A stretch of 64,000 nt of DNA from Patescibacteria group bacterium (GTDB taxonomy: Bacteria > Patescibacteriota > Patescibacteriia > PEXW01). The notes under the pieces were generated by a model, which was given only the letters and a program-made list of their open reading frames with translations, had not been told where the DNA came from and made no database searches. Each line of letters begins with the position of its first letter. Positions within the stretch are counted from its first letter, which is position 1. Positions 2,846 through 48,419 of the stretch are shown piece after piece. The DNA lies in the NCBI GenBank assembly GCA_041671325.1, contig JBAZBR010000001.1, positions 153,771-217,770 on the forward strand, given 5' to 3'. A program made the translations under genes and the position numbers.

Positions 2846-4309
2846 ATGAAAAAAAATCTGGTACCCTTATTAATTACCACGCCTATTTATTATGCCAATG
2901 CGGCGCCGCATGTGGGCTCGGCTTATACGACTATTGCCACGGATGTGTTAGCCAGGTTTTGGCGTAGCCAAGGCAGAAAAGTTTTTTTTCTGACTGGAAC
3001 TGATGAACATGGCTCAAAAGTGGCTGAGGCGGCCAATAAAGCAGGGGTAGATCCCCAGGCTTTTGTTGACCAGCAAGCAAAAGTTTTCAAAGCCGCTTTT
3101 GAAGAGCTGAATATCAGTTTTAACCGTTTTATCCGGACAACCGAATCAGACCATGTTTTAGGCGTTGAGGTATTTTTGGACAAATTAAAAAAAGCCCAGA
3201 CCCCCCTGGGCAATCCCGCAATTTATGAAGGCGAGTATAAAGGTCTATATTGCCAAGGCTGTGAAAAATTCATAACCGAAAAAGAACTGGTTGACGGTAA
3301 ATGCCCATTGCATCTCACGGTGCCGCAGCATTTGGTTGAAAACAATTATTTTTTCAGGCTTTCAGACTATTTACCGGATTTAAAAAAAGCCATTGTTAAA
3401 AACAAGATTAGCATTTTCCCTAAAACTGCACGGGAAGAAGTTTTGGGATATTTTAAACAAGGCCTGAATGATTTTTCCATTTCCCGGCAAAATGTGAAGT
3501 GGGGGATCCCACTGCCATTTGACAAGTCCCAGACGGCTTATGTTTGGGTGGATGCTTTGCCGAATTATTTGACTGGCATTGGTTTTGGCAAGAATACTTC
3601 ATACCGCAATTGGTGGCGAAGCGAAGTTATCCATTTCATGGCCAGGGATATTTTGAAATTCCATGCCATATATTGGCCAGCCTTGTTAATGGCCATTAAA
3701 GAACCCATTCCTGAAACTATCATTGCCCATGGCTATTTCACAATCGCGGGCAAGAAAATGAGCAAGTCTTTGGGTAATGTCATTTTGCCCTCGGAAATGA
3801 TTGCCAAATATGGGGTTGATGGCACGCGTTACCTTTTGCTGTCCGCTTTCCCGTTTGGCCAGGATGGGGATTTGCCAGTCGATAAGTTTGCTGAAAAATA
3901 TAATGCAGATTTGGCTAATGGCTTGGGCAACCTGGTTTCCAGGACTACCAACATGGTTGAAAGGTTTTTAGCTGGGAAGATTAAACCGGTTAAACCGCCA
4001 AAATCACTGGACAAGGCCCTGGGTTATATTGCCAAATACCAATTCAGCCAGGCTTTGAATGAGATCTGGAAAACTATCGCTTGGGCAAACCAGCAGATTG
4101 ATAATGCCAAGCCTTGGGAGCTTGCCAAAAATCAAGTAAAAGCTGATACTTTAAAATTAGAGGGGCTGTTGAATGGTTTAGTGGCGCAATTGCTAGAAAT
4201 TGCCAAAGTCCTTAAGTCTTTTATGCCTGAATCGTGCGAAAAAATTGAAAAAATTTTGAAAGCCAAAAAGATTCTAAAAAATTTACCCTTATTCATGCGG
4301 GTTGTATGA
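2846..4309 (+). CDS. metG: methionyl-tRNA synthetase
   Basis: It has a HIGH-like class I motif (AAPHVGSAY), a KMSKS motif, a CxxC...C zinc knuckle and a TDEHG motif. Confidence 0.85.
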   Translation: MKKNLVPLLITTPIYYANAAPHVGSAYTTIATDVLARFWRSQGRKVFFLTGTDEHGSKVAEAANKAGVDPQAFVDQQAKVFKAAFEELNISFNRFIRTTESDHVLGVEVFLDKLKKAQTPLGNPAIYEGEYKGLYCQGCEKFITEKELVDGKCPLHLTVPQHLVENNYFFRLSDYLPDLKKAIVKNKISIFPKTAREEVLGYFKQGLNDFSISRQNVKWGIPLPFDKSQTAYVWVDALPNYLTGIGFGKNTSYRNWWRSEVIHFMARDILKFHAIYWPALLMAIKEPIPETIIAHGYFTIAGKKMSKSLGNVILPSEMIAKYGVDGTRYLLLSAFPFGQDGDLPVDKFAEKYNADLANGLGNLVSRTTNMVERFLAGKIKPVKPPKSLDKALGYIAKYQFSQALNEIWKTIAWANQQIDNAKPWELAKNQVKADTLKLEGLLNGLVAQLLEIAKVLKSFMPESCEKIEKILKAKKILKNLPLFMRVV

Positions 4310-5850: not shown

Positions 5851-6462
5851 ATGGATAAGCAAACAGGAAAACTGGTTGCTAGAATCTCCGAGAATCTTCC
5901 GGACATGGATCCTCGCCAGATGCAAATCTGGATCGACGATCCTAAAAGACTTCAAGTAGCTCTTGCAAACGCGCTCTGTCCGGTCAGAATGGTTGACGTT
6001 ACGACCAATGGTCGCGGCGGTGAGGAGTGGATTACCCACCTCGAAGAAAAACGCTACCGTGTTGGTGACTGGGCGAAGCAGCTACTCCGCAACAAGAAGT
6101 TTGTTGCCACGAACGGCAAAACCTACACTCTCGCCATCATCATGGGCGACGAGTTCAAGGATAATGAACGCACCAACAAGAACATCAGAGAAACTGCTCA
6201 CGCTCGTGGGTACCTTGATCCGTCTGTCGAACTTGGCCCCTACCTTCGCGAGATGTTCTCTGATGAAGATCTCAAGAAAATGGGCCTTTGGGCACTCATT
6301 CTCATGCATGAGCCCATTGCCGATTCGGTTGGTGACCTGTACATGCTTGGTGTCGACCGCTTCGATGTTGGTCGTTGGCTGAACACCTACCACGGTAACC
6401 CTGACGATGGGTGGAGTCGTGAGGTCGGGTTCATGTTCTTGGTTCCCGTAAGTAGCAATTAG
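5851..6462 (+). CDS. DGR target protein; its C-terminal 43 residues are the variable region (C-type-lectin-like VR, inferred)
   Basis: The 3' end of the gene is a 129-bp near-copy of the template repeat downstream, differing only at template adenines. There is no signal peptide or TM segment. Confidence 0.8.
   Translation: MDKQTGKLVARISENLPDMDPRQMQIWIDDPKRLQVALANALCPVRMVDVTTNGRGGEEWITHLEEKRYRVGDWAKQLLRNKKFVATNGKTYTLAIIMGDEFKDNERTNKNIRETAHARGYLDPSVELGPYLREMFSDEDLKKMGLWALILMHEPIADSVGDLYMLGVDRFDVGRWLNTYHGNPDDGWSREVGFMFLVPVSSN
6320..6448 (+). repeat. DGR variable region (VR)
   Basis: It aligns base-for-base with 6879-7007 and has 12 mismatches. Every mismatch has A in the TR copy and T, G or C in the VR copy. 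Confidence 0.9.
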
Positions 6463-6500
6463 TCCTTTGGACTTCTAACCTTTGGTCTTTTGGACCCTTG

Positions 6501-6532
6501 CCCGCCTCGACTCGACGTCTCGGCGAGGCGGG
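6501..6532 (+). promoter_or_regulatory. GC-rich hairpin downstream of VR (cccgcctcg ... cgaggcggg, 9-bp stem)
   Basis: It is a perfect inverted repeat 52 nt after the VR end. It resembles the hairpin/cruciform element required for DGR target recognition in characterised systems. Confidence 0.65.
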
Positions 6533-6878
6533 GCTTTAGCCCTTGGACAAACGTACAAACCCCGCATCTTGATTTCGTAACACACGAATGATGGATGTGG
6601 GGTTTATTTATTTCTGTTAAAATAAAGATGGTAGTAGGTGAATAGGTGGATGGCTACGGCTTTCCGCTACCGAATCCAGTGAACATATAACTCAGAATAT
6701 CTTCGGGTACGCCTTAAGATAGCGCAGTGTATGTGAACTTAAAAAAATGAAGCTACTTGGTATAGCGTCCTAGGGCATTTTATATGCCGGATTCGATTCA
6801 GCCTTGAGAGTATCCCGTTGCGACTTGCGCAGCGAGGCGAGTCAAGAGGCAGTGGCATGGGCGGTACGTTATACAAAT

Positions 6879-7007
6879 CCGATTCGGATGGTGACCTGAA
6901 CATGCTTGGTGTCAACCGCAACGATAATGGTCGTTGGCTGAACACCTACAACGGTAACCCTGACAATAGGTGGAATCGTGAGATCGGGTTCATGTTCTTG
7001 GTTCCCG
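6879..7007 (+). repeat. DGR template repeat (TR). It is non-coding, and the 6818..7069 ORF is an artefact of VR homology.
   Basis: Its codons corresponding to varied VR positions are AAC/AAT (N). It is followed by a small hairpin (ctctccc/gggagag) at 7024-7044. Confidence 0.9.
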
Positions 7008-7120
7008 CAACTCGCTTCGTCACTCTCCCTATTTATGGGGAGAGTTTTGTTTCCCCGTTAGAGGTGTAATATTAACAGTATCACTCTTGGACGACATTTT
7101 TTACTTAAACGTAAGAACCT

Positions 7121-7459
7121 CTAACGGGGTTTTGTCAGTTGGCCGTTCCACCCGCCCAACATTTTTCCGATTTCATCTATTTTCATGGACAACGCGATAT
7201 ACTTTTTGTTATCCAGCGATTTTGTTTCCCACAAGATCATTAAAAGTATTTTTAGCGTGTCTGTTTTTTGAATGGCGCGACGAACATAGGGCAATTTTTC
7301 AGTTCGTCCTAAAAAGCTTGCGGTAGCAATCGCTTCTATTGTTTCGATGAAGAGGGTATCAATGCGTTGACCTAATGTGTGCCTGTGTGTTTTTGGTATT
7401 GTTTGAAAATATCCGTACCAAAGCAAATACGCACTTTTTACCTTTTGCAGGACTGGCAA
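7121..7459 (-). CDS. avd: Avd-like accessory variability determinant (four-helix-bundle protein)
   Basis: It is about 112 aa with an IPKTHRH segment. Its C-terminal EIGKMLGGW segment parallels the Bordetella phage bAvd EVGRILGSW region. It lies between TR and RT on the opposite strand. Confidence 0.6.
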   Translation of the reverse strand: MPVLQKVKSAYLLWYGYFQTIPKTHRHTLGQRIDTLFIETIEAIATASFLGRTEKLPYVRRAIQKTDTLKILLMILWETKSLDNKKYIALSMKIDEIGKMLGGWNGQLTKPR

Positions 7460-8481
7460 AAGTCGGGGGGGGTAGGATTAAGAGTATGAGTAGGATGCAA
7501 CTCATTCATAGTTATCAGCATATCATTTCCATAGAAAATTTACTTGAGGCATGGCGAGAATTCTTGGTAGGAAAACGATCTCGTTTGGATGTGCAGGCAT
7601 TTGAGATTAACTTAATGAGTAATATCATATCGTTACATAATGATCTTGCTACCAAAAAGTATCAGCATTCGTCGTATGAAGCTTTTAATATTTCCGATCC
7701 AAAACCTCGCAACATTCATAAAGCCAAGGTGCGAGACAGGTTATTACATCACGCCCTATACCGTGTTTTGTATCCATTTTTTGATAAGACATTTGTTGCC
7801 GATTCGTATTCGTGCAGGATTGGGAAAGGGACACATAAAGCAATGGAGAGGTTTCGAGGATTCGCGAATAAGACATCTCGCAATAACACAAAAACATTGT
7901 GGGTGCTAAAGTGCGATGTCAAGAAATTTTTTGCATCCATTGACCAAACTTTGCTCATGGAAATTTTGAGTGAGTACATTCCGGATAACAATGTCAGATG
8001 GCTTATGGGTCAGATTATTGGCAGTTTTTATTCAACCGAAAAAGGCAAAGGGTTACCACTTGGCAACCTAACCTCGCAACTGTTCGTTAATATGTATATG
8101 AATGAATTTGATCAATTCGTAAAGCATAAACTTAAAGCCAAGTATTACATTCGCTATGCGGATGATTTTGTTTTCATGTCGGATAGTAAGGCGTGGTTAG
8201 AATCACTGGTTCCGTTGATTAGAGATTTTTTAGCAGTCAGACTTCGCCTCACCTTACATCCACAAAAATTATTTCTTAAAACCTTGGCTTCAGGCGTTGA
8301 CTTTCTGGGATGGGTGAATTTTCCCGATCATCGCGTGTTACGCACGACAGCCCGACGGCGGATGGAAAGTCGCATCATAGAGCATCCAACGAGTGAAACG
8401 ATCCAGTCTTATTTAGGCTTACTTAAACACGGGAATACTGAGAAAATTAAAGCACAAATGTTAGGTGGTCAATTTTTGTAG
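7375..8481 (+). CDS. DGR-type reverse transcriptase (the real start is probably ATG at 7486, MSRMQLIHSY)
   Basis: It has RT motifs including LGNLTSQ (the DGR-specific [ILV]GxxxSQ in place of QGxxxSP) and YADDFVF. The size of about 330 aa is typical of DGR RTs. An AGGA-like ribosome-binding site precedes 7486. Confidence 0.85.
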   Translation: MCACVFLVLFENIRTKANTHFLPFAGLAKVGGGRIKSMSRMQLIHSYQHIISIENLLEAWREFLVGKRSRLDVQAFEINLMSNIISLHNDLATKKYQHSSYEAFNISDPKPRNIHKAKVRDRLLHHALYRVLYPFFDKTFVADSYSCRIGKGTHKAMERFRGFANKTSRNNTKTLWVLKCDVKKFFASIDQTLLMEILSEYIPDNNVRWLMGQIIGSFYSTEKGKGLPLGNLTSQLFVNMYMNEFDQFVKHKLKAKYYIRYADDFVFMSDSKAWLESLVPLIRDFLAVRLRLTLHPQKLFLKTLASGVDFLGWVNFPDHRVLRTTARRRMESRIIEHPTSETIQSYLGLLKHGNTEKIKAQMLGGQFL

Positions 8482-10155: not shown

Positions 10156-10217
10156 TTTTCAATTAGCCTTGTCTTGCTCCGCAACTGCGGGGCTGGACAG
10201 GCTAGTGGATAATTCTA

Positions 10218-10323
10218 TTGTCATTTCGAGCGGAGCAAAGCGAAGTCGAGAAATCTCGCCTTTACTAGACTAGATTCCTCCACTCCGTTCAGCCAAATGG
10301 CTGAACTTCGGTCGGAATGACAA
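10218..10323. repeat. Foldback MITE-like element, copy A (terminal inverted repeats TTGTCATTTCGAGCG / CGGTCGGAATGACAA)
   Basis: The terminal inverted repeats and internal hairpins (cgagaaatctcg; gttcagcc/ggctgaac) were read directly. It is related to copies at 13661 and 15606. Confidence 0.7.
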
Positions 10324-13660: not shown

Positions 13661-13763
13661 TGTCATCCCGAGCGAAGTCGAGGGATCTCGTTAACCTAAA
13701 TATTTAAGAAATCGAGATTCCTCCGCTTCACCCCGCAATGCGGGGTTACGGTCGGAATGACAA
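13661..13763. repeat. Foldback MITE-like element, copy B. It starts immediately after the atpG stop codon. A partial extra copy with a CCCCGCGGCCGCGGGG palindrome lies at 13795-13836.
   Basis: The left end is TGTCATCCCGAGCGAAGTCGAGGGATCTCG. The right end is GATTCCTCC...CGGTCGGAATGACAA. Confidence 0.7.
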
Positions 13764-14199
13764 ATAAAAAACGTACATTACAAAATCTGATTACCCTCAT
13801 CCGGCCCCGCGGCCGCGGGGTCGCTCGCAATGACAGATAAAAAGTGTTCCTTACAAAACGAAAAAGCGCCTTGAAGTTATCGCAGCGCTTTAGTAAAGAT
13901 AATTCAATTACAGAGGTTTTCTGGACACTACGGTAAAAAATCCGTCAATGTAAAGAATCTGGAAGAGTTCAAATTTTTTAATACACAGGCCATTAAGGTA
14001 ACCCTTAAGTTCTGTGGGTGTAACCACTTCAACATGGTAATCATAAGCAATAACCACTTTTTTACCCCTTTCCTTTTGTGTTTATACAGGCTAATTTAAT
14101 TAGATATGTTAACAAAAGTATGAATATTTGTCAAGCCATTTATGAAATGAAAGTTTTAATTTCTAAATAACATTAGGAATTAAAATTTCTAGTTCATAA

Positions 14200-15605: not shown

Positions 15606-15743
15606 TTGTCACCCTGAGCCTGAGTATTATGAAGGCGAAGGGTCTCCACAAGTGTAAATAATATTTATAAAGATTCTCCCGCCTGCCTCGCCAGTGCGAG
15701 TACGGTGGGCAGGTCCCCCGCAGTCGCGGGGTCAGAATGACAA
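15606..15743. repeat. Foldback MITE-like element, copy C. It contains the inner palindrome cccgcctgcc...gtacggtgggcagg, which is also inserted in a pseudo-tRNA at 39116-39152.
   Basis: The terminal inverted repeats are TTGTCACCCTGAGCC / GGGGTCAGAATGACAA. It begins 6 nt after the atpD stop. Confidence 0.7.
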
Positions 15744-18992: not shown

Positions 18993-19781
18993 ATGGGAAA
19001 ATTTATTATTCTACCGACTGAGCAAAAGTTTATAAAAATCAGGAATTTCAATGTTGTAATGGGTTTCTTACATTTGATCCAGGCCATTGCCATGCTTTTT
19101 ATTAGTTCGGATTTTAGCTTGCCAGTAAATTCCTCTTTTGTTCAATTCAATGTGGCCAGCGGGAAATTAGAACCGGTATTGAATACGCTTTTTAGCTTGC
19201 GCATTGGGCCTTTGGTTGCCGGGTTCTTATTCCTTTCTGCTTTAGCGCATTTCGCCATTTCTTCCGGCCGGATTTACGAATGGTATATCAAGAATTTGAA
19301 AAAAGGCCTAAACCTTGCACGCTGGATTGAATATGCCCTAAGTTCATCTTTAATGATCGTGATAATTGCCATGCTGGTTGGCATGTATGATGGGGTCAGC
19401 CTGATGTTGATGTTCTTCTTAAACATGATGATGATTTTCTTTGGTTGGCTTATGGAACTGCATAACCAATCAATTTCAAAAACTAACTGGACATCCTACG
19501 TTTTTGGTTGTATTGCCGGCGCCATTCCTTGGTTAGCCGTGGCGTTTTATCTTTTTGGTTCGGGCGGTCCAACCGGCCATGCGCCGACCTTTGTCTACTG
19601 GATTTTCTTTTCAATTTTCATTTTCTTCGATATTTTTGCGGTCAATATGATTTTGCAATACAAGAAAGTCGGCAAGTGGAAAGATTACTTATATGGCGAA
19701 AGGGCGTATATAATCTTGAGTTTGGTAGCTAAGTCACTTTTAGCTTGGCAAGTCTTTTTCGGGACTTTAAGGCCGGTTTAA
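18993..19781 (+). CDS. heliorhodopsin
   Basis: It is a 7-TM protein. Its C-terminal segment GERAYIILSLVAKSLLAWQVFFGTL is nearly identical in pattern to heliorhodopsin 48C12 (ERAYIVLSLVAKSALAWQIFSGTL) and includes the retinal-binding Lys. Shared WIEYALSSSLMIV, FGWL and GCIAGAIPW segments support the call. Confidence 0.8.
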   Translation: MGKFIILPTEQKFIKIRNFNVVMGFLHLIQAIAMLFISSDFSLPVNSSFVQFNVASGKLEPVLNTLFSLRIGPLVAGFLFLSALAHFAISSGRIYEWYIKNLKKGLNLARWIEYALSSSLMIVIIAMLVGMYDGVSLMLMFFLNMMMIFFGWLMELHNQSISKTNWTSYVFGCIAGAIPWLAVAFYLFGSGGPTGHAPTFVYWIFFSIFIFFDIFAVNMILQYKKVGKWKDYLYGERAYIILSLVAKSLLAWQVFFGTLRPV

Positions 19782-33340: not shown

Positions 33341-34231
33341 ATGTTAATTGACTGGATTGCGCTTGCTATTTTTGGGCTTTGTATGGTAATCTGCGCGGTT
33401 ATTATTTGGCGCAAGCTTCCAACTTTAGCCAGTATAAAAACCGAAGCAATTCCTAAACATCAGCAAGCTGCCCAAAAGAAGGCGCTCTTAGATAAGAGAT
33501 TACAAGATAAACTAGGCAGTTTTGAAACCGCAGTAATAAAAGTCTTTAAATTAATTTACCTGAATTTACAGAAATTCTTTAGAAATTTACTTAAATATCT
33601 GAAAGTTCGGGAAAGTGAATATCGCCGCAAAGTAATCACTCAAAAGGCAATTGAAAATCCCGATGCCTTAAGGGCAAAAATTGTAACTGCCCTGAATGAG
33701 GCTCAAATAAATTTAAAACAGAATGATCTGGAAAAAGCCGAGCAAATATTTGTTGATGTGATAAGTATGGATGCAAAAAATATAGACGCTTATTTGGGTT
33801 TATCTGATGTGGCAATGTCAAAAAAAGATTATGCAAATGCCAAGGAAGCTTTAAATTTTGTTTTAAAACTGCATCAAGATAATGAAGCGGCTTATAGCCG
33901 GCTTGGCAGGATTGCTTCGGATGAAGGAAACTTCAATGAAGCTGAAGCTGATTATTTAAAATCAATATCCCTGAATGCTTCCATGGCCAATGCGCAATTT
34001 GAATTGGGGAGTGTTGAAGAAAAACTTGGCAATTACGAGAAAGCAGAACAGGCTTTTTCTGAATCAGTAAAATTAGAGCCTGCCAACCCAAAATATTTAG
34101 ATGGATTAATACAGTTTGCCATTAGACAAAAAAATAAAAATTTAGCCAAAGAAACCTTGAAAAAATTAAAAGAAGCTAATCCAGAAAATGAAAAAATTGA
34201 TGAGTTATCAGAAAACATTAAAACAATTTAA
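33341..34231 (+). CDS. TPR-repeat protein with an N-terminal TM anchor
   Basis: It has a TM helix followed by several 34-residue A/Y/L-pattern repeats. Confidence 0.55.
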   Translation: MLIDWIALAIFGLCMVICAVIIWRKLPTLASIKTEAIPKHQQAAQKKALLDKRLQDKLGSFETAVIKVFKLIYLNLQKFFRNLLKYLKVRESEYRRKVITQKAIENPDALRAKIVTALNEAQINLKQNDLEKAEQIFVDVISMDAKNIDAYLGLSDVAMSKKDYANAKEALNFVLKLHQDNEAAYSRLGRIASDEGNFNEAEADYLKSISLNASMANAQFELGSVEEKLGNYEKAEQAFSESVKLEPANPKYLDGLIQFAIRQKNKNLAKETLKKLKEANPENEKIDELSENIKTI

Positions 34232-34257
34232 ATAATTTGTTTTCTCCCGCCACCTCT

Positions 34258-34333
34258 GCCGTTGTAGCTCAGCTGGTAGAGCAACTCCATGGTAAGGAGT
34301 AGGTCGCCGGTTCAATTCCGGCCAACGGCTCCA
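34258..34333 (+). tRNA. tRNA-Thr (anticodon GGT)
   Basis: The cloverleaf was folded by hand, with acceptor stem gccgttg/caacggc and anticodon loop aTGGTaa. A CCA end is encoded. It is enclosed by a 17-bp inverted repeat (34241-34257 / 34333-34349). Confidence 0.85.
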
Positions 34334-34444
34334 GAGGTGGCGGGAGAAATTACGCAACGGTTTTGTCCCGCACATTATAAATTCAATAGTTGTAAACGGG
34401 ATCTTCGAAATTGCATCAAAATTTGCCAGCGTAGCTCAGCTGGT

Positions 34445-34688
34445 ACCCCGCACAACTCACTACGTTCGTTTGCGGGGCAGGGAGCAACGGTTTTGTCTCC
34501 CTTCGGGAGATGTCCCGTAGGGACATAAACCTTGAAAAATAATTAGTTTTAAACCCGAGCCGCCCTAGCTCAGTGGTAGAGCAACTGTTTTGTAAACAGT
34601 AGGTCGTCAGTTCGACTCTGACGGGCGGCTCCAAACCCGGCGGGCAGAAACCGTAGGTCGTCCCGCGGCCGCGGGACCGCTGGCTCCA
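34445..34688 (+). pseudogene. degenerate tRNA-Thr(TGT)-like gene with hairpin insertions in the D-loop, anticodon loop and T-loop. The intact tRNA-Thr(TGT) is nested inside its anticodon-loop insertion.
   Basis: The 5' half gccagcgtagctcagctggta...gagcaacggttttgt and the 3' half aaaccgtaggtcgtc[ccgcggccgcgggac]cgctggctcca pair as acceptor and anticodon stems. Confidence 0.55.
34559..34633 (+). tRNA. tRNA-Thr (anticodon TGT)
   Basis: The cloverleaf was folded by hand, with anticodon loop ttTGTaa. A CCA end is encoded. Confidence 0.85.
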
Positions 34689-34830
34689 CGCGTCATCGCT
34701 TGTTCCACCCTTCGTGTACTCGAATTGTCGAGTCCACTGCGGGTTCCACAAGCGTGCCGCTTTCCCCAAATTTTTCTTTGAAAAATTTGGGGCTCCAATT
34801 CATTAATTTCAATAATTCAATTATTATCCT

Positions 34831-34986
34831 ATGTCACAAGAAAATCTTATCAAGTTAGAATGTACGGTTTGCAAGCACGTGAATTATCATTCAAAAAAGA
34901 ACAAAAAAACTTTGAAAAAACGTTTGGAATTGAAGAAACACTGTTCATGGTGCGAAAAGCATACTTTACACAAGGAAACTAAATAA
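34831..34986 (+). CDS. rpmG: 50S ribosomal protein L33 (zinc-ribbon form, 51 aa). It is not in the ORF track because it is under 60 aa.
   Basis: The ORF was read directly as [51 protein letters not shown], with CxxC...CxxC and a KKRLELKK segment. Confidence 0.7.
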
Positions 34987-34992
34987 TTGGAT

Positions 34993-35083
34993 GGGGGAAT
35001 AGTTCAGCGGTAGAACAGCGGTCTCCCCGCCTTCCACGCCCGACGTACCAGACGCACTCTGGCGGGGACGGGTCGGAGTACGG
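34993..35083 (+). pseudogene. degenerate tRNA 5' fragment (tRNA-Trp-like) with a GC-rich hairpin insertion after the anticodon
   Basis: gggggaatagttcagcggtagaacagcggtctcc parallels the intact tRNA-Trp 5' half. It is followed by the insert ccgcc...ggcgg and has no T-arm or acceptor 3' strand. Confidence 0.5.
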
Positions 35084-35108
35084 AAATTATATTATATTGC
35101 TAGTTGAT

Positions 35109-35182
35109 GGGGGCGTAGTTCAACAGTAGAACTTCGGTCTCCAAAACCGGTAACGAGGGTGCGACACCTTCCGCCCCCGCCA
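35109..35182 (+). tRNA. tRNA-Trp (anticodon CCA)
   Basis: The cloverleaf was folded by hand, with anticodon loop ctCCAaa. A CCA end is encoded. The T-loop tgcgaca is non-canonical. Confidence 0.75.
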
Positions 35183-35238
35183 ACTAGCGGTATACATGAT
35201 ATTATTCCTATTTTTTCTATATTTTTTAACAAAAATTA

Positions 35239-36609
35239 ATGCAACTTACAATATTATTTTTCATACTGTATATTGCCGTTGTAGTAATAATCGGTGTAAT
35301 ATCTTCACGAAAAGAGACTGAAGACGGTTTTATGATCGCAGAAAGGAAGGTGTCTGGTATCCAGGTTGCTGCCACAATGAGCGCTGGTTTTTTTGACGGT
35401 GCAACACTCGCGGTATATCTTGCGTATATTTACCTATACGGAATGTCGGCGGCATGGCTCTTTGTTGGTTTAGCCATTGGCTTTATTCTTTTGCGCCGTC
35501 GATATGCGCTGATAATAAAGAAAAGGGCGGATGAAATGCATGTGTACTCTATGCCTGAATATTTTTATAAAATTTTTGGGAAAAGAACTGGTTTAATGTT
35601 CACATTTTTACTAGTTCTGCAGTATTTTCTTCTGCTAATAGTAAACTTCATAATCGCTGGCAAAGTATTGTCATTAATTTTCCCTGTATCTTATTTCATT
35701 TCGGTAATGATCGGAGGTGCTGTAATCCTTACTTATCTTTTACTCGCCGGTTTTAAAGCCGTTATTAAAACAGACTTTTTTCAGTTAATAATAATGTTTA
35801 TAATGAGTTTAACAGTAGCAATATTCTTGTTTGGTAAAACCAATATACCAATTTCTGATTTTAGACCTTTTACTTTAGGAGTTGGCAATTTAGTAGGATT
35901 TTTACTGTTAGGATGTGTAGGAATAATGGTCGCACCCGACCTTTGGCAACGTATTTTCGCTACCAAAGATGAAATTAACCTCAAACGAGGATTGGGTTAT
36001 TCCGCAATCATCTTGCCATTACTTGCTATCATTATTAGTATTGTTGGTCTTGCAACTAAACAATTCTTTCCAAATATTGTCCCTGAAAATGCACTTATTA
36101 CAGGGTTCTCTGAGTTATTACCCTTTGGGCTTAAGGAGTTTGGCATTGTCCTGTTATATGCCGTCGCCCTTTCGTCGTCGGACACTATCACTTTCTTAGT
36201 ATCATCAATCTTTACCAGAGATTTGAAAAATTACACTAAACGGTTTGGCGAAGAATCAATGAAAAAACTTACTCGATTTTTCATGATAGTATTCGTATTA
36301 GTTGCCGTTCTTATTGCTATATTCTATCAAAACATTGTTGCCCTCGGTCTATCATTGGGCAGTTTAAGTTTGGCCTTATTCCCTGTCATTCTCGGCACCT
36401 TTTATTGGAAGCTAAACGAACGTGCGGTTTATTGGAGCTTGTTGATAGCTTTTCTGAGCGTTGTCGCAGTATTTTTAGCTGATGCTGTGAATCCGCAAAA
36501 TGTGGCAATTTCTCTACCTGTTGCGGTCATTAGTCTGTTTATCCTTAACAAAATTTTTAAGAAAAAAGAAAGAATAACCTCTGCGCCTAAAGTTACAATG
36601 ACTTTGTAG
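35239..36609 (+). CDS. sodium:solute symporter (SSS) family transporter
   Basis: It is a roughly 13-TM protein of 456 aa with an SSS-like N-terminal region. It lies between tRNA-Trp and a 29-nt repeat of the tRNA 3' part. Confidence 0.5.
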   Translation: MQLTILFFILYIAVVVIIGVISSRKETEDGFMIAERKVSGIQVAATMSAGFFDGATLAVYLAYIYLYGMSAAWLFVGLAIGFILLRRRYALIIKKRADEMHVYSMPEYFYKIFGKRTGLMFTFLLVLQYFLLLIVNFIIAGKVLSLIFPVSYFISVMIGGAVILTYLLLAGFKAVIKTDFFQLIIMFIMSLTVAIFLFGKTNIPISDFRPFTLGVGNLVGFLLLGCVGIMVAPDLWQRIFATKDEINLKRGLGYSAIILPLLAIIISIVGLATKQFFPNIVPENALITGFSELLPFGLKEFGIVLLYAVALSSSDTITFLVSSIFTRDLKNYTKRFGEESMKKLTRFFMIVFVLVAVLIAIFYQNIVALGLSLGSLSLALFPVILGTFYWKLNERAVYWSLLIAFLSVVAVFLADAVNPQNVAISLPVAVISLFILNKIFKKKERITSAPKVTMTL

Positions 36610-36661
36610 AAAACGTGGGCATTATCCAATATCACGGTACTATATCTGCCAAGCGGGCATG

Positions 36662-36690
36662 CAAAACCGGTAACGAGGGTGCGACACCTT
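36662..36690 (+). repeat. 29-nt perfect direct repeat of the tRNA-Trp 3' part (caaaaccggtaacgagggtgcgacacctt), equal to 35142-35170. It looks like an att-site scar.
   Basis: The exact match was read directly. Confidence 0.8.
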
Positions 36691-36721
36691 TTGCTCCTGT
36701 TGCATAACTATATCGAAATTT

Positions 36722-37318
36722 ATGTTACCAAAAATAATTCTTTTTGATGTCGGCAATGTGGTTATCGATGCCGATCAAGCAATTACTCATAAACTTCTTC
36801 AAAGTTTGGGTGTTCCAAAGGAACAGTCCGAATTATTTTATAAGAATAAGGAATACTTTGAGTTTAGCCGCGGTAATATTTGCGGGCAGGATTTTTATAA
36901 ATCCTTAATTAATGAGTATTTAAAAATTCCGCTCTCTTACGAGCAGGTGGTAAACGCCCACAACCAACATATTTATGGAGTTAATGAAAACGTTATTCAA
37001 ACCATTAAGGGCTTATCAAAGTACACAATTTTATTTGCGACAGATACCAACGAGTGGCAAACCGCCAGAGAGAAGGAGTTAATAAACTTGAAATTATATA
37101 GCCAACATATTTTTAGATCTCACGAATTACATAAGTTAAAAGTGGATGATGGATTCTTTGAGGGTATTCTTGAATTTCTTAACATTAATTCAGCCGAGGT
37201 TCTTTTTATCGATGATGATCCGCAAAAGTTAAATATGGCGATAAGACAGGGTTTGGAAGGGTTAATTTTTGAAAATAATCTTCAATTGAAACAATCTTTA
37301 AGCAATTTGGGTATTTAA
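36722..37318 (+). CDS. HAD-superfamily hydrolase
   Basis: It has motif I ILFDVGNVVID, motif II ILFATDTN and motif IV LFIDDD. Confidence 0.55.
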   Translation: MLPKIILFDVGNVVIDADQAITHKLLQSLGVPKEQSELFYKNKEYFEFSRGNICGQDFYKSLINEYLKIPLSYEQVVNAHNQHIYGVNENVIQTIKGLSKYTILFATDTNEWQTAREKELINLKLYSQHIFRSHELHKLKVDDGFFEGILEFLNINSAEVLFIDDDPQKLNMAIRQGLEGLIFENNLQLKQSLSNLGI

Positions 37319-37448
37319 GGCTTATTTAGAAATGAATTTAAAATAACCTGTTTGTCAATTAATACCGCCAAGAAAGCGGTTTTTTTGTTAGTGTTGACGG
37401 AATTTCATTATTGTGTGAAAATAAAAAAGCTACAATGCTTACCTTAAG

Positions 37449-37859
37449 ATGCGAAATCAACATCAAAAACAATTCCTAAAGCGGGTTTTAACCTCAAGAG
37501 GTATAATTGTTTTTGAGGTTTTAATTATAGCTTTTTTACTTATTGGCATTTCTAAGGAAATTATCAGGCGAGTTTCATTAAGGCAGGAAATAACGACCCT
37601 AGAAAAGCAAATTACCGAACTTGAATCGCAAAACCGAAGCTTGGGAGAATATGTAGCCTCGATAAATACCGAAAGTTTTAAAGAAAAAGAGGCGCGGAAG
37701 CGCTTAAACCTTCAAAAACCCGGAGAATCTTTACTAATCTTGCCGGAAACCAAGAGTTTATCAAATGAAACACCAGAAAATTCAATTTCAAACTCCATTG
37801 GAAAAGGAAAGTCGAACCCGCTTCGATGGTGGCGATATTTCTTTACTTCTTCAACTTAA
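37449..37859 (+). CDS. FtsB/DivIC-like septum formation initiator (TM plus coiled coil)
   Basis: It has an N-terminal TM helix and a leucine-zipper coiled coil LRQEITTLEKQITELESQNRSL. Confidence 0.55.
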   Translation: MRNQHQKQFLKRVLTSRGIIVFEVLIIAFLLIGISKEIIRRVSLRQEITTLEKQITELESQNRSLGEYVASINTESFKEKEARKRLNLQKPGESLLILPETKSLSNETPENSISNSIGKGKSNPLRWWRYFFTSST

Positions 37860-37866
37860 TTAATTT

Positions 37867-38955
37867 ATGACCGAAATTCATCCTGATCATGAGGCGGTTC
37901 GAGCAGAGATTGCGGAAGCAAAATTACCCGATCCAGAGCATCATGATTTAAAAAAATTACCTCCTCCGCACATCCATTGGCTTAGAAGGATAGCTATCTG
38001 GCTGGGCGGCTTGGTTGTTTTATTAATCCTGGTTTTTGCCGTAGGCTATTTGCGGTTCAGCTGGCAGAACAAAATATTATTATGGCCAGCCAAAGTTTTG
38101 CCCTATCCAGTCTCAATTGTGGGAGGTGAATGGCTTTCATATTATGATTATCAAGCTGATGTGCCAAATATAACCCAATACGTTGAAAGAAATTCCCCAC
38201 CAGATGCCGAGGTTACCAGAAATATGTCTTTAGACGTTTATTCCCGCAAGATAATCTTGAATAAGATGATTGGCGAGGAAATTATCAATAAAATTGGTCT
38301 AGCCAAAAAATTAACCGTCACCCAGGCTGATATTGATAAAACTTATCAAAATTACGTCACCCAGGCTGGCAGTACTGAAGCAGAAATTTCTGATACTATT
38401 AAAACTTTGTACAACTGGTCGGTGGATGAATTCAAACAAAAATTAATCAGTTCTCAGGTTATCCAGGAAAAATTGGCTGAATCATATTTTGCTGAAGTAA
38501 AAAATCAAGTTGAACAGCTCCGAACGGAAATCCTGAAAGACCCCAAAACTTTTGGTGAAGTTGCAAAAACACAAAGCGATGATACCTCAGCTGCCAAAGG
38601 TGGATTAATTGAGCCTATGAATACTGCTGCCCTTAAGACAGCCTATAGCGATTCGGCCGCGCAGATTGAAAGCCTGAAGGTTGGCGAAATCTCAAACGTT
38701 CTGGAAACCAGCCGAGGTTATGAAATTGTGTATTTGGAAAAGAAGGAAGCGGCAAAAAAAACGGCTGATGGTAATATGTTTACTTTGAGGGTAATTTCCA
38801 AAATGCCGGATTATAATACCTGGATCCAGGATTTAGTTAATGCAGAAATAAAGAAAAGCCGAATTATTGTTTTTGAACCAAGATTCAGATGGGAAGCGGA
38901 CTGCGGTATCTTAACTAAAGCGGAGCCAAGCTGCAAAACTACGGCTAGTAATTAA
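37867..38955 (+). CDS. membrane-anchored PpiC/parvulin-type peptidyl-prolyl isomerase (PrsA/SurA-like foldase)
   Basis: It has a TM anchor and a C-terminal parvulin domain (GGLIEP...GEISNVLETSRGYEIVYL). Confidence 0.55.
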   Translation: MTEIHPDHEAVRAEIAEAKLPDPEHHDLKKLPPPHIHWLRRIAIWLGGLVVLLILVFAVGYLRFSWQNKILLWPAKVLPYPVSIVGGEWLSYYDYQADVPNITQYVERNSPPDAEVTRNMSLDVYSRKIILNKMIGEEIINKIGLAKKLTVTQADIDKTYQNYVTQAGSTEAEISDTIKTLYNWSVDEFKQKLISSQVIQEKLAESYFAEVKNQVEQLRTEILKDPKTFGEVAKTQSDDTSAAKGGLIEPMNTAALKTAYSDSAAQIESLKVGEISNVLETSRGYEIVYLEKKEAAKKTADGNMFTLRVISKMPDYNTWIQDLVNAEIKKSRIIVFEPRFRWEADCGILTKAEPSCKTTASN

Positions 38956-39070
38956 ATTAAGTTTGGATCCCCGCGCGGCGGAACTGGCGCGTGGGGAAGG
39001 CGAGGCTTCGTGCGGAGTCTGGAGTGAGCAAGCGTTAGCGTGCTTACGGAAGGCGAAGCACGAAACGAGC

Positions 39071-39270
39071 TGGAGCCAGCGGTCCCGCGGCCGCGGGACG
39101 ACCTCTGCTTTACCTGCCCACCGTACTTCGCTTGGCGAAGGCAGGCGGGCGAAAGCATTGCTCTTCCGGGGAGTTCGGATCCCGTAAGCGGGATAGCCTC
39201 ACTCCCGTCTTGGCTCTCGCAAACTCAAGCAGTTGAGTTTGCTCGTCGCCTCGACCCAACTGAGCTAGAT
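39071..39270 (-). pseudogene. degenerate tRNA-Thr(CGT)-like copy immediately downstream (minus strand) of the intact gene. It has a 95-nt D-loop insertion, a 37-nt anticodon-loop insertion and the same palindromic T-arm and tail as the 34445-34688 pseudo-tRNA.
   Basis: The minus-strand read is ctagctcagttgg[ins]gagcaatgctttcg[cccgcctgccttcgccaagcgaagtacggtgggcagg]taaagcagaggtcgtcccgcggccgcgggaccgctggctcca. The 34-nt tail is identical to 34655-34688. Confidence 0.55.
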
Positions 39271-39346
39271 TGGAGCCACCCGTCGGAGTCGAACCGACGA
39301 CCTCTGCTTTACGAAAGCATTGCTCTACCAACTGAGCTAGGGTGGC
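39271..39346 (-). tRNA. tRNA-Thr (anticodon CGT)
   Basis: The cloverleaf was folded by hand on the minus strand, with anticodon loop ttCGTaa. A CCA end is encoded. Confidence 0.8.
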
Positions 39347-39361
39347 ATAAGATATGACGCG

Positions 39362-39435
39362 TGGAGCGGGTAACGGGAATCGGACCCGTATCTCATCCTT
39401 GGGAAGGATATGTACTACCACTGTACTATACCCGC
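39362..39435 (-). tRNA. tRNA-Gly (anticodon CCC)
   Basis: The cloverleaf was folded by hand on the minus strand, with acceptor gcgggta/tacccgc and anticodon loop ttCCCaa. Confidence 0.75.
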
Positions 39436-39456
39436 CTGCAATCAGGATTTTAAACA

Positions 39457-41442
39457 ATGTATGGATATATGACAAGCTTAAAAAAACTTTCATTCGCCAT
39501 TTGCGCCTTTTTAGTGATTTTTTTGCCAATCAAAGTTTTTGCGGCTGAACCAACGATAATTGACGTTGAAAGCGATTTCGCAGTCCGCGGCAGGGAATAT
39601 AAAATTGGAGAAGAATTCACTTTAGGTTTAAGACCCGACCTTTTTTCCTCTCCAGCCAGGATTACCATCACCCCGGAAGCTACTTTACCATTAGCCCTGC
39701 CTCCTAGGTATGAAGAGGCTGGCAAGCGTTATGAGTTAGTAATTGACGCGGCAGATGAAGGTGTGATGGCGGCAGATGCCATGTGGTTAAAAGTTTTAAG
39801 CGCTCCAAAAGCTGGGACAGAAACAGTTTTATTAGGCTTTAATTTTTCCAAACAAATTTGGGAATTTTTGGGACGTGGTGCGGACGCTCAGAATTTTATT
39901 AAAGGATCAACAAAACAACTGCATACTGTAATTGTAGCGGCAGCAGATTTATTTACCGTTCCAGGGAATTTTGGCAGTGATTTAATTGTTAATTCAAAAA
40001 CACAAGTTATAGATTTATCATCCCAATCAGTATTAAATTTTAAATTTGAAAATCTGCAATTTACTTTACCGAGTTCAACTATCAGCCAGAATGCGAGTTT
40101 AATAGTAATTCCAAATGTCGTTAGTCCTTTAATTTTACCGAGTCGATTTAAGGCCCGAACTTCATATTATCAGATAGCTCTACGTCAGCCCGGTGGGATA
40201 AAAATCCGGCCAACCGCTCCAATTACAATTTCGCCGACTTTAGCCAAGAACGGTTTTTTTGAACAAAAAGTTTTAATTTATAATGCCACCCATAAAACCT
40301 GGGAAACAGCCATTAAAAACCGTGTACCCAATCCAGAATCAATTTTTTTAATTGTTGATGATTTGGGCGAAGAGCAGGGGATAGCCAGTTGGTATTCAAG
40401 CAAAAAGTATCCTGATGGCGTAGCTCATAATCGTTATCCCATGGGTACTAAGCTAAAAGTCACAAATATCGAAAATAACAAATCAACCATCGTTAAAGTC
40501 GTCTCACGGGGACCGTACATTCGCGGTCGGGTTATTGATATGGTTTATACGGCATTTAAAAAGATAAAAGGCAAAAATGGCGGGGTAGCCACGGTCAAGG
40601 TTGCGGTTGTCGATTTGAAAGTTTTAGGCGAAACCATTGCAAAAACTGAAACACAATTAAATCCGGTTCCCACAGATGTCAATTCCAAGGAGCCTATTAA
40701 GCTTCCAATTTCGAGTACTGCTGGTGCAGTTTATGATGTTGATAATAAGGTCTTTGTGGCAATAAAAAATTCAGATGAAGCCCATCCAATCGCCAGCCTG
40801 TCCAAATTAATGACAGCTTTAGTTTATCTTGATCGCAAACCAACCTTTAGGAATAAAGTCACTTATCAAAAATCAGATTCAGCAATATGCGCTTGTCTGT
40901 ATGTGTCACCAGGCGAAACTTTAACAACCAAAGATTTGTGGAATGCCATGCTGATCGGTTCGGCAAATAACGCAGTTAAAGCGTTAGTCAGGTCAACGAA
41001 ATTATCAGAAGCAGAGTTTGTAAAACTAATGAACGAGAAGGCAAAGGCCTTGGGCCTTAACACCCTAACTTTTGCCGATCCAACCGGCTTAGATCCAGCA
41101 AACCAGGGCTCAGCTGCGGATATGGCAAAACTTGCCGCCATTGCTTTTTCTCGCCCAGAAATTGCCAATACGACCATTAAAAAAAGCTATACTTTTTCAA
41201 CCCTTAATACCAAAAGAAGCCATACCATAACCAACCGTAACCAGATTTTAACCAGTGGCTGGCAAGTAACCGGGACAAAAACTGGATATATAGAAGAATC
41301 AGGTTTTTGCTTAATCGGCCAGGTAAAAGGCAAGACCACAAACCGGAATTTAGTCGTGGTCACTTTGGGGGCCCAATCAAAAGCCCTGCATTATACTGAA
41401 ATGGAAAATTCATTTAGCATTGGTTTTGCAAATATTCAATGA
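39457..41442 (+). CDS. secreted cell-wall enzyme with an RlpA-like double-psi beta-barrel domain and a D-alanyl-D-alanine carboxypeptidase (S11, PBP5-like) domain
   Basis: It has a signal peptide, a DPBB-like region WYSSKKYPDGVAHNRYPMGTKLKVTN, an SxxK motif IASLSKLMTA and a serine-carboxypeptidase region. Confidence 0.65.
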   Translation: MYGYMTSLKKLSFAICAFLVIFLPIKVFAAEPTIIDVESDFAVRGREYKIGEEFTLGLRPDLFSSPARITITPEATLPLALPPRYEEAGKRYELVIDAADEGVMAADAMWLKVLSAPKAGTETVLLGFNFSKQIWEFLGRGADAQNFIKGSTKQLHTVIVAAADLFTVPGNFGSDLIVNSKTQVIDLSSQSVLNFKFENLQFTLPSSTISQNASLIVIPNVVSPLILPSRFKARTSYYQIALRQPGGIKIRPTAPITISPTLAKNGFFEQKVLIYNATHKTWETAIKNRVPNPESIFLIVDDLGEEQGIASWYSSKKYPDGVAHNRYPMGTKLKVTNIENNKSTIVKVVSRGPYIRGRVIDMVYTAFKKIKGKNGGVATVKVAVVDLKVLGETIAKTETQLNPVPTDVNSKEPIKLPISSTAGAVYDVDNKVFVAIKNSDEAHPIASLSKLMTALVYLDRKPTFRNKVTYQKSDSAICACLYVSPGETLTTKDLWNAMLIGSANNAVKALVRSTKLSEAEFVKLMNEKAKALGLNTLTFADPTGLDPANQGSAADMAKLAAIAFSRPEIANTTIKKSYTFSTLNTKRSHTITNRNQILTSGWQVTGTKTGYIEESGFCLIGQVKGKTTNRNLVVVTLGAQSKALHYTEMENSFSIGFANIQ

Positions 41443-43042: not shown

Positions 43043-43069
43043 GAAAATTAATTTAATCTAGTGAATCAT

Positions 43070-43161
43070 TCCGGGATCGTCTTCCGCCAGAGGCGGATTA
43101 AGAAAATGGTAGGACAGCGGCCTTTTCCGCCCTAGGCGGACTCGCCTCCGGCGAGGAAGCC
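43070..43161 (+). pseudogene. degenerate tRNA-Gln 5' half with a hairpin insertion in the D-loop and two hairpins after the anticodon position. It lies upstream of a GIY-YIG gene.
   Basis: tccgggatcgtc[ttccgccagaggcggattaagaaaa]tggtaggacagcggcctttt[ccgccctaggcgg actcgcctccggcgagg]aagcc parallels intact tRNA-Gln positions 1-38. Confidence 0.55.
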
Positions 43162-43173
43162 AAGATATAATTT

Positions 43174-43371
43174 ATGTATTACGTTTACGTATTACTAAGT
43201 CATAAAGATAGAACAAGATATATTGGTTATTCTTCAAAAGAACCACATATTCGTCTCGCTGAACATAATAGTAGCAAAGGAATGTTTACACGTGGTCATC
43301 AACCCTGGATACTGACTTATTATGAAGAATTTGAACAGATAAAGACTGCTCGTGAGCGTGAGTTATTCTAA
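43174..43371 (+). CDS. GIY-YIG nuclease family protein (65 aa)
   Basis: It has an YVYVLLS...RTRYIGYS GIY-YIG core. Confidence 0.65.
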   Translation: MYYVYVLLSHKDRTRYIGYSSKEPHIRLAEHNSSKGMFTRGHQPWILTYYEEFEQIKTARERELF

Positions 43372-43425
43372 AAAAAGCGGCCAGGGCAGGAAATGGCTTG
43401 ACGACAAGTTTAAAAAATAATTTAT

Positions 43426-43499
43426 TCCGGGATCGTCTAATGGTAGGACAGCGGCCTTTGAAGCCGTTTATCTTGGTTCGAATCCAGGTCCCGGAGCCA
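43426..43499 (+). tRNA. tRNA-Gln (anticodon TTG)
   Basis: The cloverleaf was folded by hand, with acceptor tccggga/tcccgga, anticodon loop ctTTGaa and T-loop ttcgaat. Confidence 0.8.
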
Positions 43500-45080: not shown

Positions 45081-45121
45081 AAACCTTTTAATAGGATAGC
45101 TTAGTTGCGTTATAGCACTTT

Positions 45122-47940: not shown

Positions 47941-48125
47941 AGTGGGTAATGTTTAGTGAGTGAGGGGTTGGGGAAAGTTCTTTGCGCTTTCTTTCAGGAC
48001 AACCTCCATTAGGCGGATGAGTCGTAGTCCCTTCTCCAGTGCTTCCTCCTTGGTGAGGTCCACACCAAAGTGCTTGCGGTAGAGCATTTGGAACTCGGTA
48101 AGGTGGTCGTCCGTGAGCTGCATGG

Positions 48126-48419
48126 CTATTCGGAGTAGAGCCGATTTTTTAGCATTTTGAGGGTGTCGAAGTACTGTAATGCAGAGATTTTGAGTTCACC
48201 CGCCCAATATTTATTTATAGCCTCGTCGATTCCTTCCTTACGTTTGAAGACAAAAAGTGCCTTCCGTGGGTTCGTTTTATCGAGCGTTACAAGTTCAAAA
48301 CCTGAACAGAGGAGCGCGGAACAAGCGCCCATGTCAAAGGACCTTAGAAGATGCTCTTGGTTGTCAAGCGGAATGTGGCGGATCTCTTCCGGGGGTATGC
48401 TCTTCTGTCCTTGAGTCAT
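48126..48419 (-). CDS. hypothetical protein
   Basis: It is an ORF in the mobile region. Confidence 0.35.
   Translation of the reverse strand: MTQGQKSIPPEEIRHIPLDNQEHLLRSFDMGACSALLCSGFELVTLDKTNPRKALFVFKRKEGIDEAINKYWAGELKISALQYFDTLKMLKNRLYSE

Follow-up and report, generated by a model that had tools for sequence, protein, structure and literature searches.

Mitochondrial GC clusters, double-hairpin elements (DHE) and hairpin elements are GC-rich hairpins with conserved stems and with copies shared between species; they are suspected to be mobile, and no enzyme is known for them (PMC10085805, PMC2800124). T4 SegB, a free-standing GIY-YIG homing endonuclease, cuts the tRNA gene region of a related genome, and its own gene is preferentially inherited together with the flanking tRNA genes (PMC2330249). 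Here we describe a bacterial locus that resembles both: a 64-kb stretch of the genome of a Patescibacteria group bacterium (contig JBAZBR010000001.1; below, the window), in which GC-rich hairpins interrupt displaced copies of tRNA genes and also sit in a palindromic repeat of the atp operon. At tRNA-Gln the hairpins precede a small GIY-YIG open reading frame (ORF), and the same arrangement is found in many metagenomic contigs. We suggest, with a probability of about one half, that the GC hairpins are modules of small free-standing GIY-YIG cassettes that invade tRNA genes, together with solo derivatives of such modules.

In its working this system is closest to the mitochondrial GC clusters, DHE and repetitive hairpin elements of yeast, Allomyces, Schizosaccharomyces and sponges. 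In both cases single or tandem GC hairpins occupy the intergenic DNA of an AT-richer genome as well as loops of structured RNA genes that tolerate them; stems are conserved and loops variable, identical units occur across species, and copies are polymorphic between relatives. In Allomyces, DHEs have been noted near mobile endonuclease ORFs. However, the host here is a free-living or episymbiotic member of the Patescibacteria rather than an organelle, the genome is only moderately AT-rich (the GC content of the window is 42%), and the hairpins go with displaced copies of tRNA genes and with one particular small nuclease gene. The mitochondrial elements are an analogue and not a family to which the hairpins belong: the likeness is one of working, and no sequence similarity is expected. 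As in the case of SegB, the nuclease gene lies among or next to tRNA genes. Unlike SegB, the proteins are 65-90 aa long and consist of the catalytic domain alone, their best solved relatives being UPF0213 (UPF0213/YhbQ-like) proteins; their homing activity is putative, and after each insertion part of the target tRNA remains in duplicate, broken up by GC hairpins. We know of no such duplicates for the Seg enzymes.

The sole cassette still in place in the window is at tRNA-Gln (43069..43499, + strand) and runs from a displaced tRNA 5' copy through the GIY-YIG ORF to the real tRNA. Positions 1-13/14 of the displaced copy are at 43069-43082 and positions 14-34 at 43105-43124, and GAAGCC follows the last hairpin. 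The D loop of the copy is interrupted by the hairpin TCCGCCAGAGGCGGA (43083-43097, +) and its anticodon by the tandem hairpins TCCGCCCTAGGCGGA and CTCGCCTCCGGCGAG (43126-43140 and 43141-43155, +). The ORF has 65 codons (43174-43371, +; PF01541, E = 1.7e-9), and the real tRNA-Gln is located at 43426-43499. A TATAAT sequence just before the ATG was considered as a promoter and rejected, since the spacing is too short for this ORF. The arrangement resembles the partial tRNA duplications at integrase att sites, where an element enters a tRNA gene, makes it whole again from a copy that it brings along and leaves a fragment. However, integrase islands displace the 3' part of the tRNA, whereas in the present case displacement affects the 5' part or the entire gene, the insert measures about 250-350 nt with no integrase inside, and the fragment carries hairpin insertions.

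Relatives syntenic with the window at graded distances were used for comparison: L084 (AtpG 86% identical), L086/L087 (71%), L088-L091 (PPIase 72% identical), L092 (65%) and L093 (56%). AtpD and AtpG of the window have their best relatives in candidate phyla radiation (CPR) genomes assembled from metagenomes. At tRNA-Gln, L088 has the same arrangement, its second hairpin enclosing an extra unit of about 36 nt; in L092 the ORF is reduced to a C-terminal remnant, and in L093 the cassette is absent. Compared with L088, the ORF of the window ends at a premature stop, and its conserved C-terminal KSGQGRK motif runs on in another frame (43368-43415). Judged from its sequence, the nuclease gene of the window is decaying, though its hairpin leader is highly conserved.

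The generality of this architecture was assessed in 80 metagenomic loci with related GIY-YIG genes, retrieved by alignment of three such nucleases. In about 40 of the 80 a same-strand tRNA (at least 14 identities) starts 6-66 nt after the ORF; thus the gene lies directly upstream of a tRNA in about half of the loci, and it is present or absent among relatives, as at a recurrent target. A 5' copy of the adjoining tRNA, which ends a few bases before the ATG and in most cases is interrupted by hairpins, occurs in about 22 of 26 distinct loci having enough upstream sequence; L108, L118, L150, L165 and L171 were left out of the counts because the automatic tRNA-to-upstream alignment is spurious in weak cases. 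Over 73 distinct loci, the last 50 nt ahead of the ATG hold 8.3 hairpins per kb and the other sequence 0.25 per kb, a concentration of about 33-fold, and the distance from hairpin to start codon is tight (about 15-50 nt). The curated insertion points (about 29, including those of the window and its relatives) fall at tRNA positions 12-15, 21-23 and 32-37, at the border of the variable loop and in the T arm. The acceptor stem is free of them, and none reaches more than 2 nt into a helix; under uniform placement this has a roughly estimated p of about 5e-4, a figure that understates the clustering at a few positions.

Hairpin type also follows the nuclease. Protein clustering unites loci with like hairpins: in one clade, CCAGCCnnnGGCTGG followed by TCSGCCnnnGGCSGA stands beside Ser and Tyr tRNAs, and the remaining clades share other 5' motifs. 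Since hairpin type tracks the nuclease clade, the 5' flank is inherited with the gene. The hairpin families of the window TCCGCCnnnGGCGGA and CTCGCCTCYGGCGAG are found in unrelated contigs as well; its hairpin TCTCCCTTCGGGAGA recurs in L137 and CCCCGCnnnnGCGGGG in L163. L004, L023, L088 and L112 contain the nested unit CCCGCCTGC-(inner hairpin)-GYGGGCAGG, again with the same two imperfect pairs.

Several of these regularities would also be expected if the hairpins were not mobile DNA at all but selected structural signals in the leader of a cassette transcript that also delivers an essential tRNA, with possible roles in 5'-end protection, as processing signals or as barriers to cassette-deleting recombination between tRNA copies. 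We regard this as a serious alternative, clearly less probable than invading cassettes and partly compatible with them rather than exclusive of them. Between the window and L088, identity is 93% over the pseudo-tRNA-Gln with its hairpin leader and 100% over the final 31 nt before the ATG, compared with 74-79% for ftsX, ftsE and the GIY-YIG ORF itself. Around the GCC...GGC core the stems carry paired changes (TCC/GGA, TCG/CGA, CCA/TGG, CTC/GAG, CCT/AGG) that keep complementarity. The tight spacing to the start codon and the respect of all insertions for tRNA helix boundaries fit a signal too. On the other hand, hairpins are gained and lost at orthologous sites of close relatives, and the same units are met at unrelated sites that have no ORF close by, in the arms of the atp-operon repeats, in tRNA T arms and in the tRNA trailers of L088. 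None has the T tract of an intrinsic terminator; in a terminator scan of 34200-43600 the palindromes are not among the terminator-like sites and their flanks lack T runs, and a promoter scan of the same region gave promoter-like sites at background level. Rfam, searched over the whole window at gathering thresholds and over 33800-44000 at E <= 10, returned only tRNAs and the LOOT RNA, with no family at the hairpins or pseudo-tRNAs. Structural signals alone would not explain identical families in distant genomes and beside different tRNAs.

Alternatively, the hairpins could be independent non-autonomous elements of the repetitive extragenic palindromic (REP), Rickettsia palindromic element (RPE) or Correia type, which are moved by an unlinked transposase and accumulate where they are harmless. 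This we consider unlikely. The hairpins are indeed short GC-rich palindromes confined to non-coding DNA, one family is common to distant genomes, and solo copies have precise borders and no target duplication (34446-34481, L112, L138). As with RPE and Correia elements, palindromic repeats are met in intergenic DNA and tolerant gene parts; the repeat of the atp operon behaves in this way and in L024 and L078 lies, RPE-like, inside the atpG frames. As in REP/REPIN with their RAYT proteins, GC-rich imperfect palindromes are extragenic and sometimes paired, and the notion of a nuclease gene with cognate hairpins at its sides is common to both. However, REP/REPIN are 20-40-nt palindromes with a conserved head tetranucleotide (GTAG type) and tens to hundreds of extragenic copies; here the hairpins are 15-18-nt triloop units with no such head, and their partner gene is GIY-YIG. 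RPE and Correia elements are about 100-150 bp long with defined terminal inverted repeats, and Correia elements and miniature inverted-repeat transposable elements (MITEs) have a target duplication (TA in Correia), whereas the GC hairpins, 15-40 nt long, have neither terminal repeats nor target duplications. Among the Pfam-annotated genes, which cover parts of the window, there is neither a RAYT (Y1/HUH) nor a transposase of any other kind. By sequence, membership in REP/RAYT, RPE, Correia or MITE families fails on head, terminal repeats and target duplication. Passive accumulation would also not lead one to expect the 33-fold concentration before GIY-YIG starts or the match of hairpin type and nuclease clade, and the insertions occupy few tRNA positions rather than being spread over the dead copies.

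The original prediction, made from the window alone, had noticed the palindromes and read them as a family of small invaders scattered through the genome, landing preferentially in loops and comparable to Correia, RPE or REP elements. The recurrence itself is real, non-random and made of hairpin-forming units. The exact 14-mer CCCGCGGCCGCGGG occurs at 13806-13819, 34662-34675 and 39084-39097, three copies against 0.07 expected from shuffles; the complete palindromes around it measure 16 nt (CCCCGCGGCCGCGGGG, 13805-13820) or 18 nt (34660-34677 and 39082-39099). Perfect GC hairpins (stem >= 6 bp, loop <= 6 nt, GC >= 80%) number 11 in the whole window, against 4.6 +/- 2.2 in dinucleotide shuffles; the truly non-coding part, about 9 kb, contains eight of the 11, whereas 0.5 +/- 0.7 would be expected there. 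The gene map used for this census is crude, and its spurious ORFs are the reason why three hairpins of the set were mislabelled as coding. The palindromes are thus well above the frequency expected from base composition. Single units of 15-18 nt (stem of 6-9 bp, loop of 0-4 nt), tandem double hairpins and a nested version of about 36 nt are found; there are several stem families, each with only 2-3 copies in 64 kb.

Mis-assembly is excluded, since independent Logan unitigs (SRR6484324) reproduce the palindromes: one (L082) is the same as the window over the second of the atp-operon repeats and its palindrome, and another contains the palindrome at 39082-39099 and starts and stops exactly in the two copies of the repeated block. 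That the pattern is due to chance or to an assembly artefact, for which nothing but the small size of the units speaks, is practically negligible given both counts, the agreement of independent assemblies and the homologous units in other genomes.

In other respects the earlier description has to be changed. The hairpins are not scattered but are met in just two contexts in the window: displaced copies of tRNA genes that stand next to live ones, and a single, unchanging subterminal position in the MITE-like repeat. All three sites of CCCGCGGCCGCGGG exist, but those at 34662 and 39084 belong to a 34-nt block that is identical in both places, AGGTCGT-CCCGCGGCCGCGGG-ACCGCTGGCTCCA (34655-34688 and 39071-39104), the acceptor strand of which is unlike either live Thr gene nearby. 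Since the block includes tRNA flanks, the palindrome was copied by gene conversion in one event and was not inserted twice. The nested hairpin is present in both reported places, near-identical and inverted (about 33 of 38 aligned columns), with coordinates a few bases off those given before: 15678-15713 (+) and 39113-39149 (-). The hairpins described in the shadow copies of tRNA-Gln, Trp and Thr(UGU) are all there (43083-43155, 35025-35067, 34446-34481, 34496-34525), and they differ between the window and L088 at Thr(UGU), pseudo-tRNA-Gln and pseudo-tRNA-Trp. Several insertions do fall at tRNA loops or helix ends; the slot in the MITE-like repeat, however, is fixed, and the idea of loop-seeking invaders needs recasting around the replacement of tRNA genes by nuclease cassettes. 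The prediction is therefore supported in part, and it missed the association with small GIY-YIG nucleases in many metagenomic contigs.

The clearest insertions are in a disrupted ancestral tRNA-Thr(UGU) gene (34425..34688, +), the orthologue of an intact gene in L088, gccagcgtagctcagctggtagagcaacggttttgtaaaccgtaggtcgtcggtccaaatccgaccgctggctcca (gccagcg...ggtccaaatcc...cgctggctcca). tRNA positions 1-21 start at 34425 and end at 34445; a 36-nt D-loop insert between positions 21 and 22 follows (34446-34481, +), and then positions 22-36 (34482-34496). Directly after the anticodon stand the tandem 15-nt hairpins TCTCCCTTCGGGAGA and TGTCCCGTAGGGACA (34496-34525) and, after a spacer, a complete and different replacement tRNA-Thr(UGU) (34559-34633), which the old anticodon loop thus encloses. 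At 34649-34688 the old gene resumes with its 3' part, the T arm being replaced by GTCCCGCGGCCGCGGGAC (34660-34677). Relative to L088, the window has the D-loop insert, the anticodon-loop insert and a T arm changed from GGTCCAAATCC to CCGCGGCCGCGG. Given the intact L088 orthologue, the hairpins of the window are true insertions and replacements in a superseded gene. An older tRNA-Thr(UGU) 5' fragment lies upstream in both the window (34354-34372) and L088 and ends at the same anticodon position; together with the insertion at 34496 it indicates that the point after this anticodon was struck at least twice. L093 has a near-intact tRNA-Thr(UGU) copy in which only the T arm is replaced, by CCCCGCCACGGCGGGG.

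A pseudo-tRNA-Thr on the minus strand (39071..39267) comes directly after the live tRNA-Thr(CGU) (39271-39346). It comprises the start of the D arm (39256-39267), a 92-nt multi-hairpin D-loop insert (39164-39255), positions 22-35 (39150-39163), the 37-nt nested hairpin within the anticodon (39113-39149) and a 3' part (39071-39112) with the T arm replaced by the palindrome 39082-39099. The third relic is a displaced tRNA-Trp 5' copy with its hairpin (34993..35067, +). Positions 1 to about 35 of the tRNA are at 34993-35026, and a 43-nt GC hairpin that breaks the anticodon (35025-35067, +) ends 42 nt before the live gene (35109-35182, +). The pseudo-tRNA-Trp of L088 has a double hairpin after position 12, which is missing in the window. 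In L093 a tRNA-Trp 5' copy with two hairpins sharing the stem CCCAGCC/GGCTGGG is followed by a GIY-YIG ORF and the live tRNA. Hairpins are hence gained or lost at Trp and Thr and conserved between species at Gln. No ORF is present at the Thr(UGU), Thr(CGU) and Trp sites of the window; with L093 and L137 as our only basis, we infer that they may once have held one.

Could the hairpins be local replication errors, produced by fold-back or template switching in decaying palindromic DNA, and thus neither mobile nor functional? Several of them are perfect loopless palindromes (13805-13820, 34660-34677), and the first arm of the hairpin in L110 and L149 reverse-complements the tRNA bases beside it, GGCTG. 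However, L122 has the same hairpin where the local flank differs (GGCAG), the same asymmetric mismatches recur in families of unrelated genomes, and the T-arm palindrome is not derivable from the GGTCCAAATCC that it replaced. This origin is therefore very unlikely.

Several further features were observed at the tRNA loci. The palindrome-bearing tRNA 3' blocks form a 41-nt inverted repeat (34648-34688 / 39071-39111) around a 4.4-kb segment with rpmG, tRNA-Trp, a transporter, HAD, DivIC and PPIase; an independent unitig ends in both 41-nt copies, and inversion of the segment is possible. tRNA-Trp sequence from the anticodon loop onward (its 3' part) occurs twice, at 35142-35170 and 36662-36690 (92% over 36 nt), the second copy lying beyond a sodium:solute symporter gene (35239-36609); the pair looks like the att duplication of a small integrated cassette. 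An 89-nt block (34704-34792) has a tRNA-Thr-like 5' end at its start (TCCACCCT) and ends in the hairpin CCCCAAATTTTT...AAAAATTTGGGG; L088 has kept it between its tRNA-Gly and tRNA-Thr(CGU) genes and has part of a second copy close to the start of the contig. In 34245-34349 the live tRNA-Thr(GGU) is bracketed by the inverted repeats tctcccgccacctc...gaggtggcgggaga, and in 35100-35195 the live tRNA-Trp by ctagtt...aactag, which would lengthen the acceptor stem of the precursor. GC-rich sequences of 110-170 nt stand directly after the CCA of several tRNA genes and are of two conserved types, GCTCGTTTCG...ACGAAGCCTCGC... and GCCTTCGCCCCTTG...; they are found at 38950-39078 (-) in the window, at 7452-7600 and 8674-8815 in L093, at 4395-4570 in L092 and at 476-700, 3290-3470 and 3690-3845 in L088. 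Next to tRNA-Gln there is a probable integrated element (43437-48419) with a large serine recombinase (-, ends 45080), a 209-aa ORF, a 729-aa Toprim/primase-like protein (45751-47940) and a DUF5659 protein.

The second context of the hairpins is the palindromic repeat of about 100 nt, TGTCATYCYGAGCG...TCRGRATGACA, with terminal inverted repeats (TGTCAT...ATGACA), which occupies three spacers of the atp operon. Copy A (10219..10322, +; atpE-atpF spacer) has a subterminal hairpin at 10287-10306 that is not GC-rich; a GC hairpin upstream of this copy (10165-10203) keeps its position after atpE in L084 and L086. Copy B (TGTCATCCCGAGCG...CGGTCGGAATGACA; 13661..13762, +; atpG-atpD spacer) has the hairpin ACCCCGCAATGCGGGGT at 13730-13746, and in the half copy at 13794-13835 the fixed slot is filled by the 16-nt perfect palindrome. 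In copy C (15607..15742, +; atpD-atpC spacer) the resident hairpin CCCCGCAGTCGCGGGG at 15716-15731 is adjoined by the 36-nt nested hairpin of the CCCGCCTGC...GYGGGCAGG family. One arm of every copy thus bears a small hairpin at the same subterminal position, with a sequence differing by copy; it is GC-rich in B, half-B and C, and not in A, and the same slot holds a hairpin in the copies of L086/L087, L024 and L078. The subterminal hairpin is a built-in variable module or a hot spot rather than a random landing, the 36-nt unit of copy C being the one clear case of an additional insertion.

The atpD-atpC spacer of L084/L086 lacks the MITE-like repeat. L001, the closest relative by AtpD, is a high-GC genome with no spacers and serves as an empty reference only. 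Searches with exact CCGCGGCCGCGG and exact MITE ends gave no match in 80 atp-centred genome loci; with a looser MITE-end pattern the repeat family was found in five other genomes. TGTCAT...ATGACA repeats are seen in other CPR lineages (L024 9430-9505, L078 9650-9731, L086 10905-11410), and the copies within the atpG reading frame of L024 and L078 recall Rickettsia palindromic elements.

The mechanism which we suggest starts from what is observed: the cassettes have a general architecture, insertions follow positional rules, hairpin type goes with nuclease clade, relatives differ in presence and absence, and one copy event took flanking homology along. We infer that the nuclease makes breaks and that repair copies a cassette or a hairpin into them, cleavage and mobility being putative.

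In the first step, a tRNA gene would be broken where it codes for a loop; the GIY-YIG nuclease is a plausible agent.

In the second step, the break would be repaired from a donor cassette, so that hairpins, ORF and a substitute for part or all of the tRNA are copied in. The cell would thereby regain the essential tRNA and keep the resident part as a dead copy.

In the third step, later breaks in the dead copies would be patched with hairpins copied from elsewhere. Flanking homology may be copied too, as in the 34-nt block 34655-34688 / 39071-39104, or no flank may be copied, as with the 36-nt unit in MITE copy C and in the Thr anticodon. The tRNA-Gln locus of the window would then be a decaying cassette and Thr(UGU), Thr(CGU) and Trp would be relics without an ORF; the MITE-like repeats would be a second hairpin-accepting site.

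A number of points weigh against this mechanism, beginning with its putative enzymology. Known homing endonucleases owe their site specificity to a separate DNA-binding domain, which these proteins lack. The presumed target is kept in the live tRNA beside a cassette, which leaves self-immunity unexplained. Evidence from the source genome is limited to the window; there, tblastn with 75 GIY-YIG proteins found no remnants at the Thr and Trp relic sites (three hairpin sites), and the hairpins of the MITE-like repeats have no visible link to a nuclease gene. The tRNA-Gln cassette looks old and vertically inherited, with its premature stop in the window and its remnant in L092. The fact that the Gln leader outconserves neighbouring genes points, as far as sequence can tell, to a selected function and not to pure selfish turnover.

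Two variants of the invading cassette were rejected. The hairpins might give immunity by destroying the target of the nuclease, but the adjacent live tRNA retains the same sequence. Solo hairpins might be remnants of cassettes deleted between direct repeats, but such a deletion would take the hairpin too, and the borders are exact.

More tentatively, we propose that the hairpins are cis DNA structures recognised or cut by the minimal GIY-YIG nuclease. Nuclease and hairpin would then form a new bacterial mobile unit, like REP and RAYT, that homes into loop-coding positions of tRNA genes, rebuilds the tRNA from its own copy, seeds solo hairpins into cruciform-prone DNA (dead tRNA copies, MITE arms) and is widespread in Patescibacteria. 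This further step is possible rather than probable. If the cassette reading is right, the long-unexplained mitochondrial GC clusters and double-hairpin elements have a bacterial counterpart with a candidate enzyme next door, so that mobility becomes testable. The reading would also provide a route for the repeated invasion, rebuilding and replacement of essential tRNA genes that exist as single copies in genomes of only about 1 Mb, a turnover to which the differing acceptor stems of successive tRNA-Thr copies would attest. It would account for the 'shadow' tRNA fragments that confuse annotation and give a possible role to the very common, uncharacterised small GIY-YIG proteins of the UPF0213 type. 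Full-text searches of the literature, which cover only a minority of the subscription journals, brought up no account of GIY-YIG genes that follow a tRNA 5' copy broken by hairpins. Such copies are practical markers for these cassettes in metagenomes.

Lastly, some features of the window lie apart from the hairpin system. A complete diversity-generating retroelement (5851-8481) has its variable repeat (6320-6456) at the 3' end of the ORF 5851-6462, its template repeat at 6879-7015 and its reverse transcriptase at 7375-8481. All 12 internal differences between template and variable repeat are at template adenines, and the variable repeat is closely followed by a GC hairpin (6501-6532). The stretch 49418-49537 strongly matches the LOOT RNA (RF03000, 84 bits vs a threshold of 46). 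A heliorhodopsin gene (PF18761) is located at 18993-19781 and has the same position in L084 and L086.

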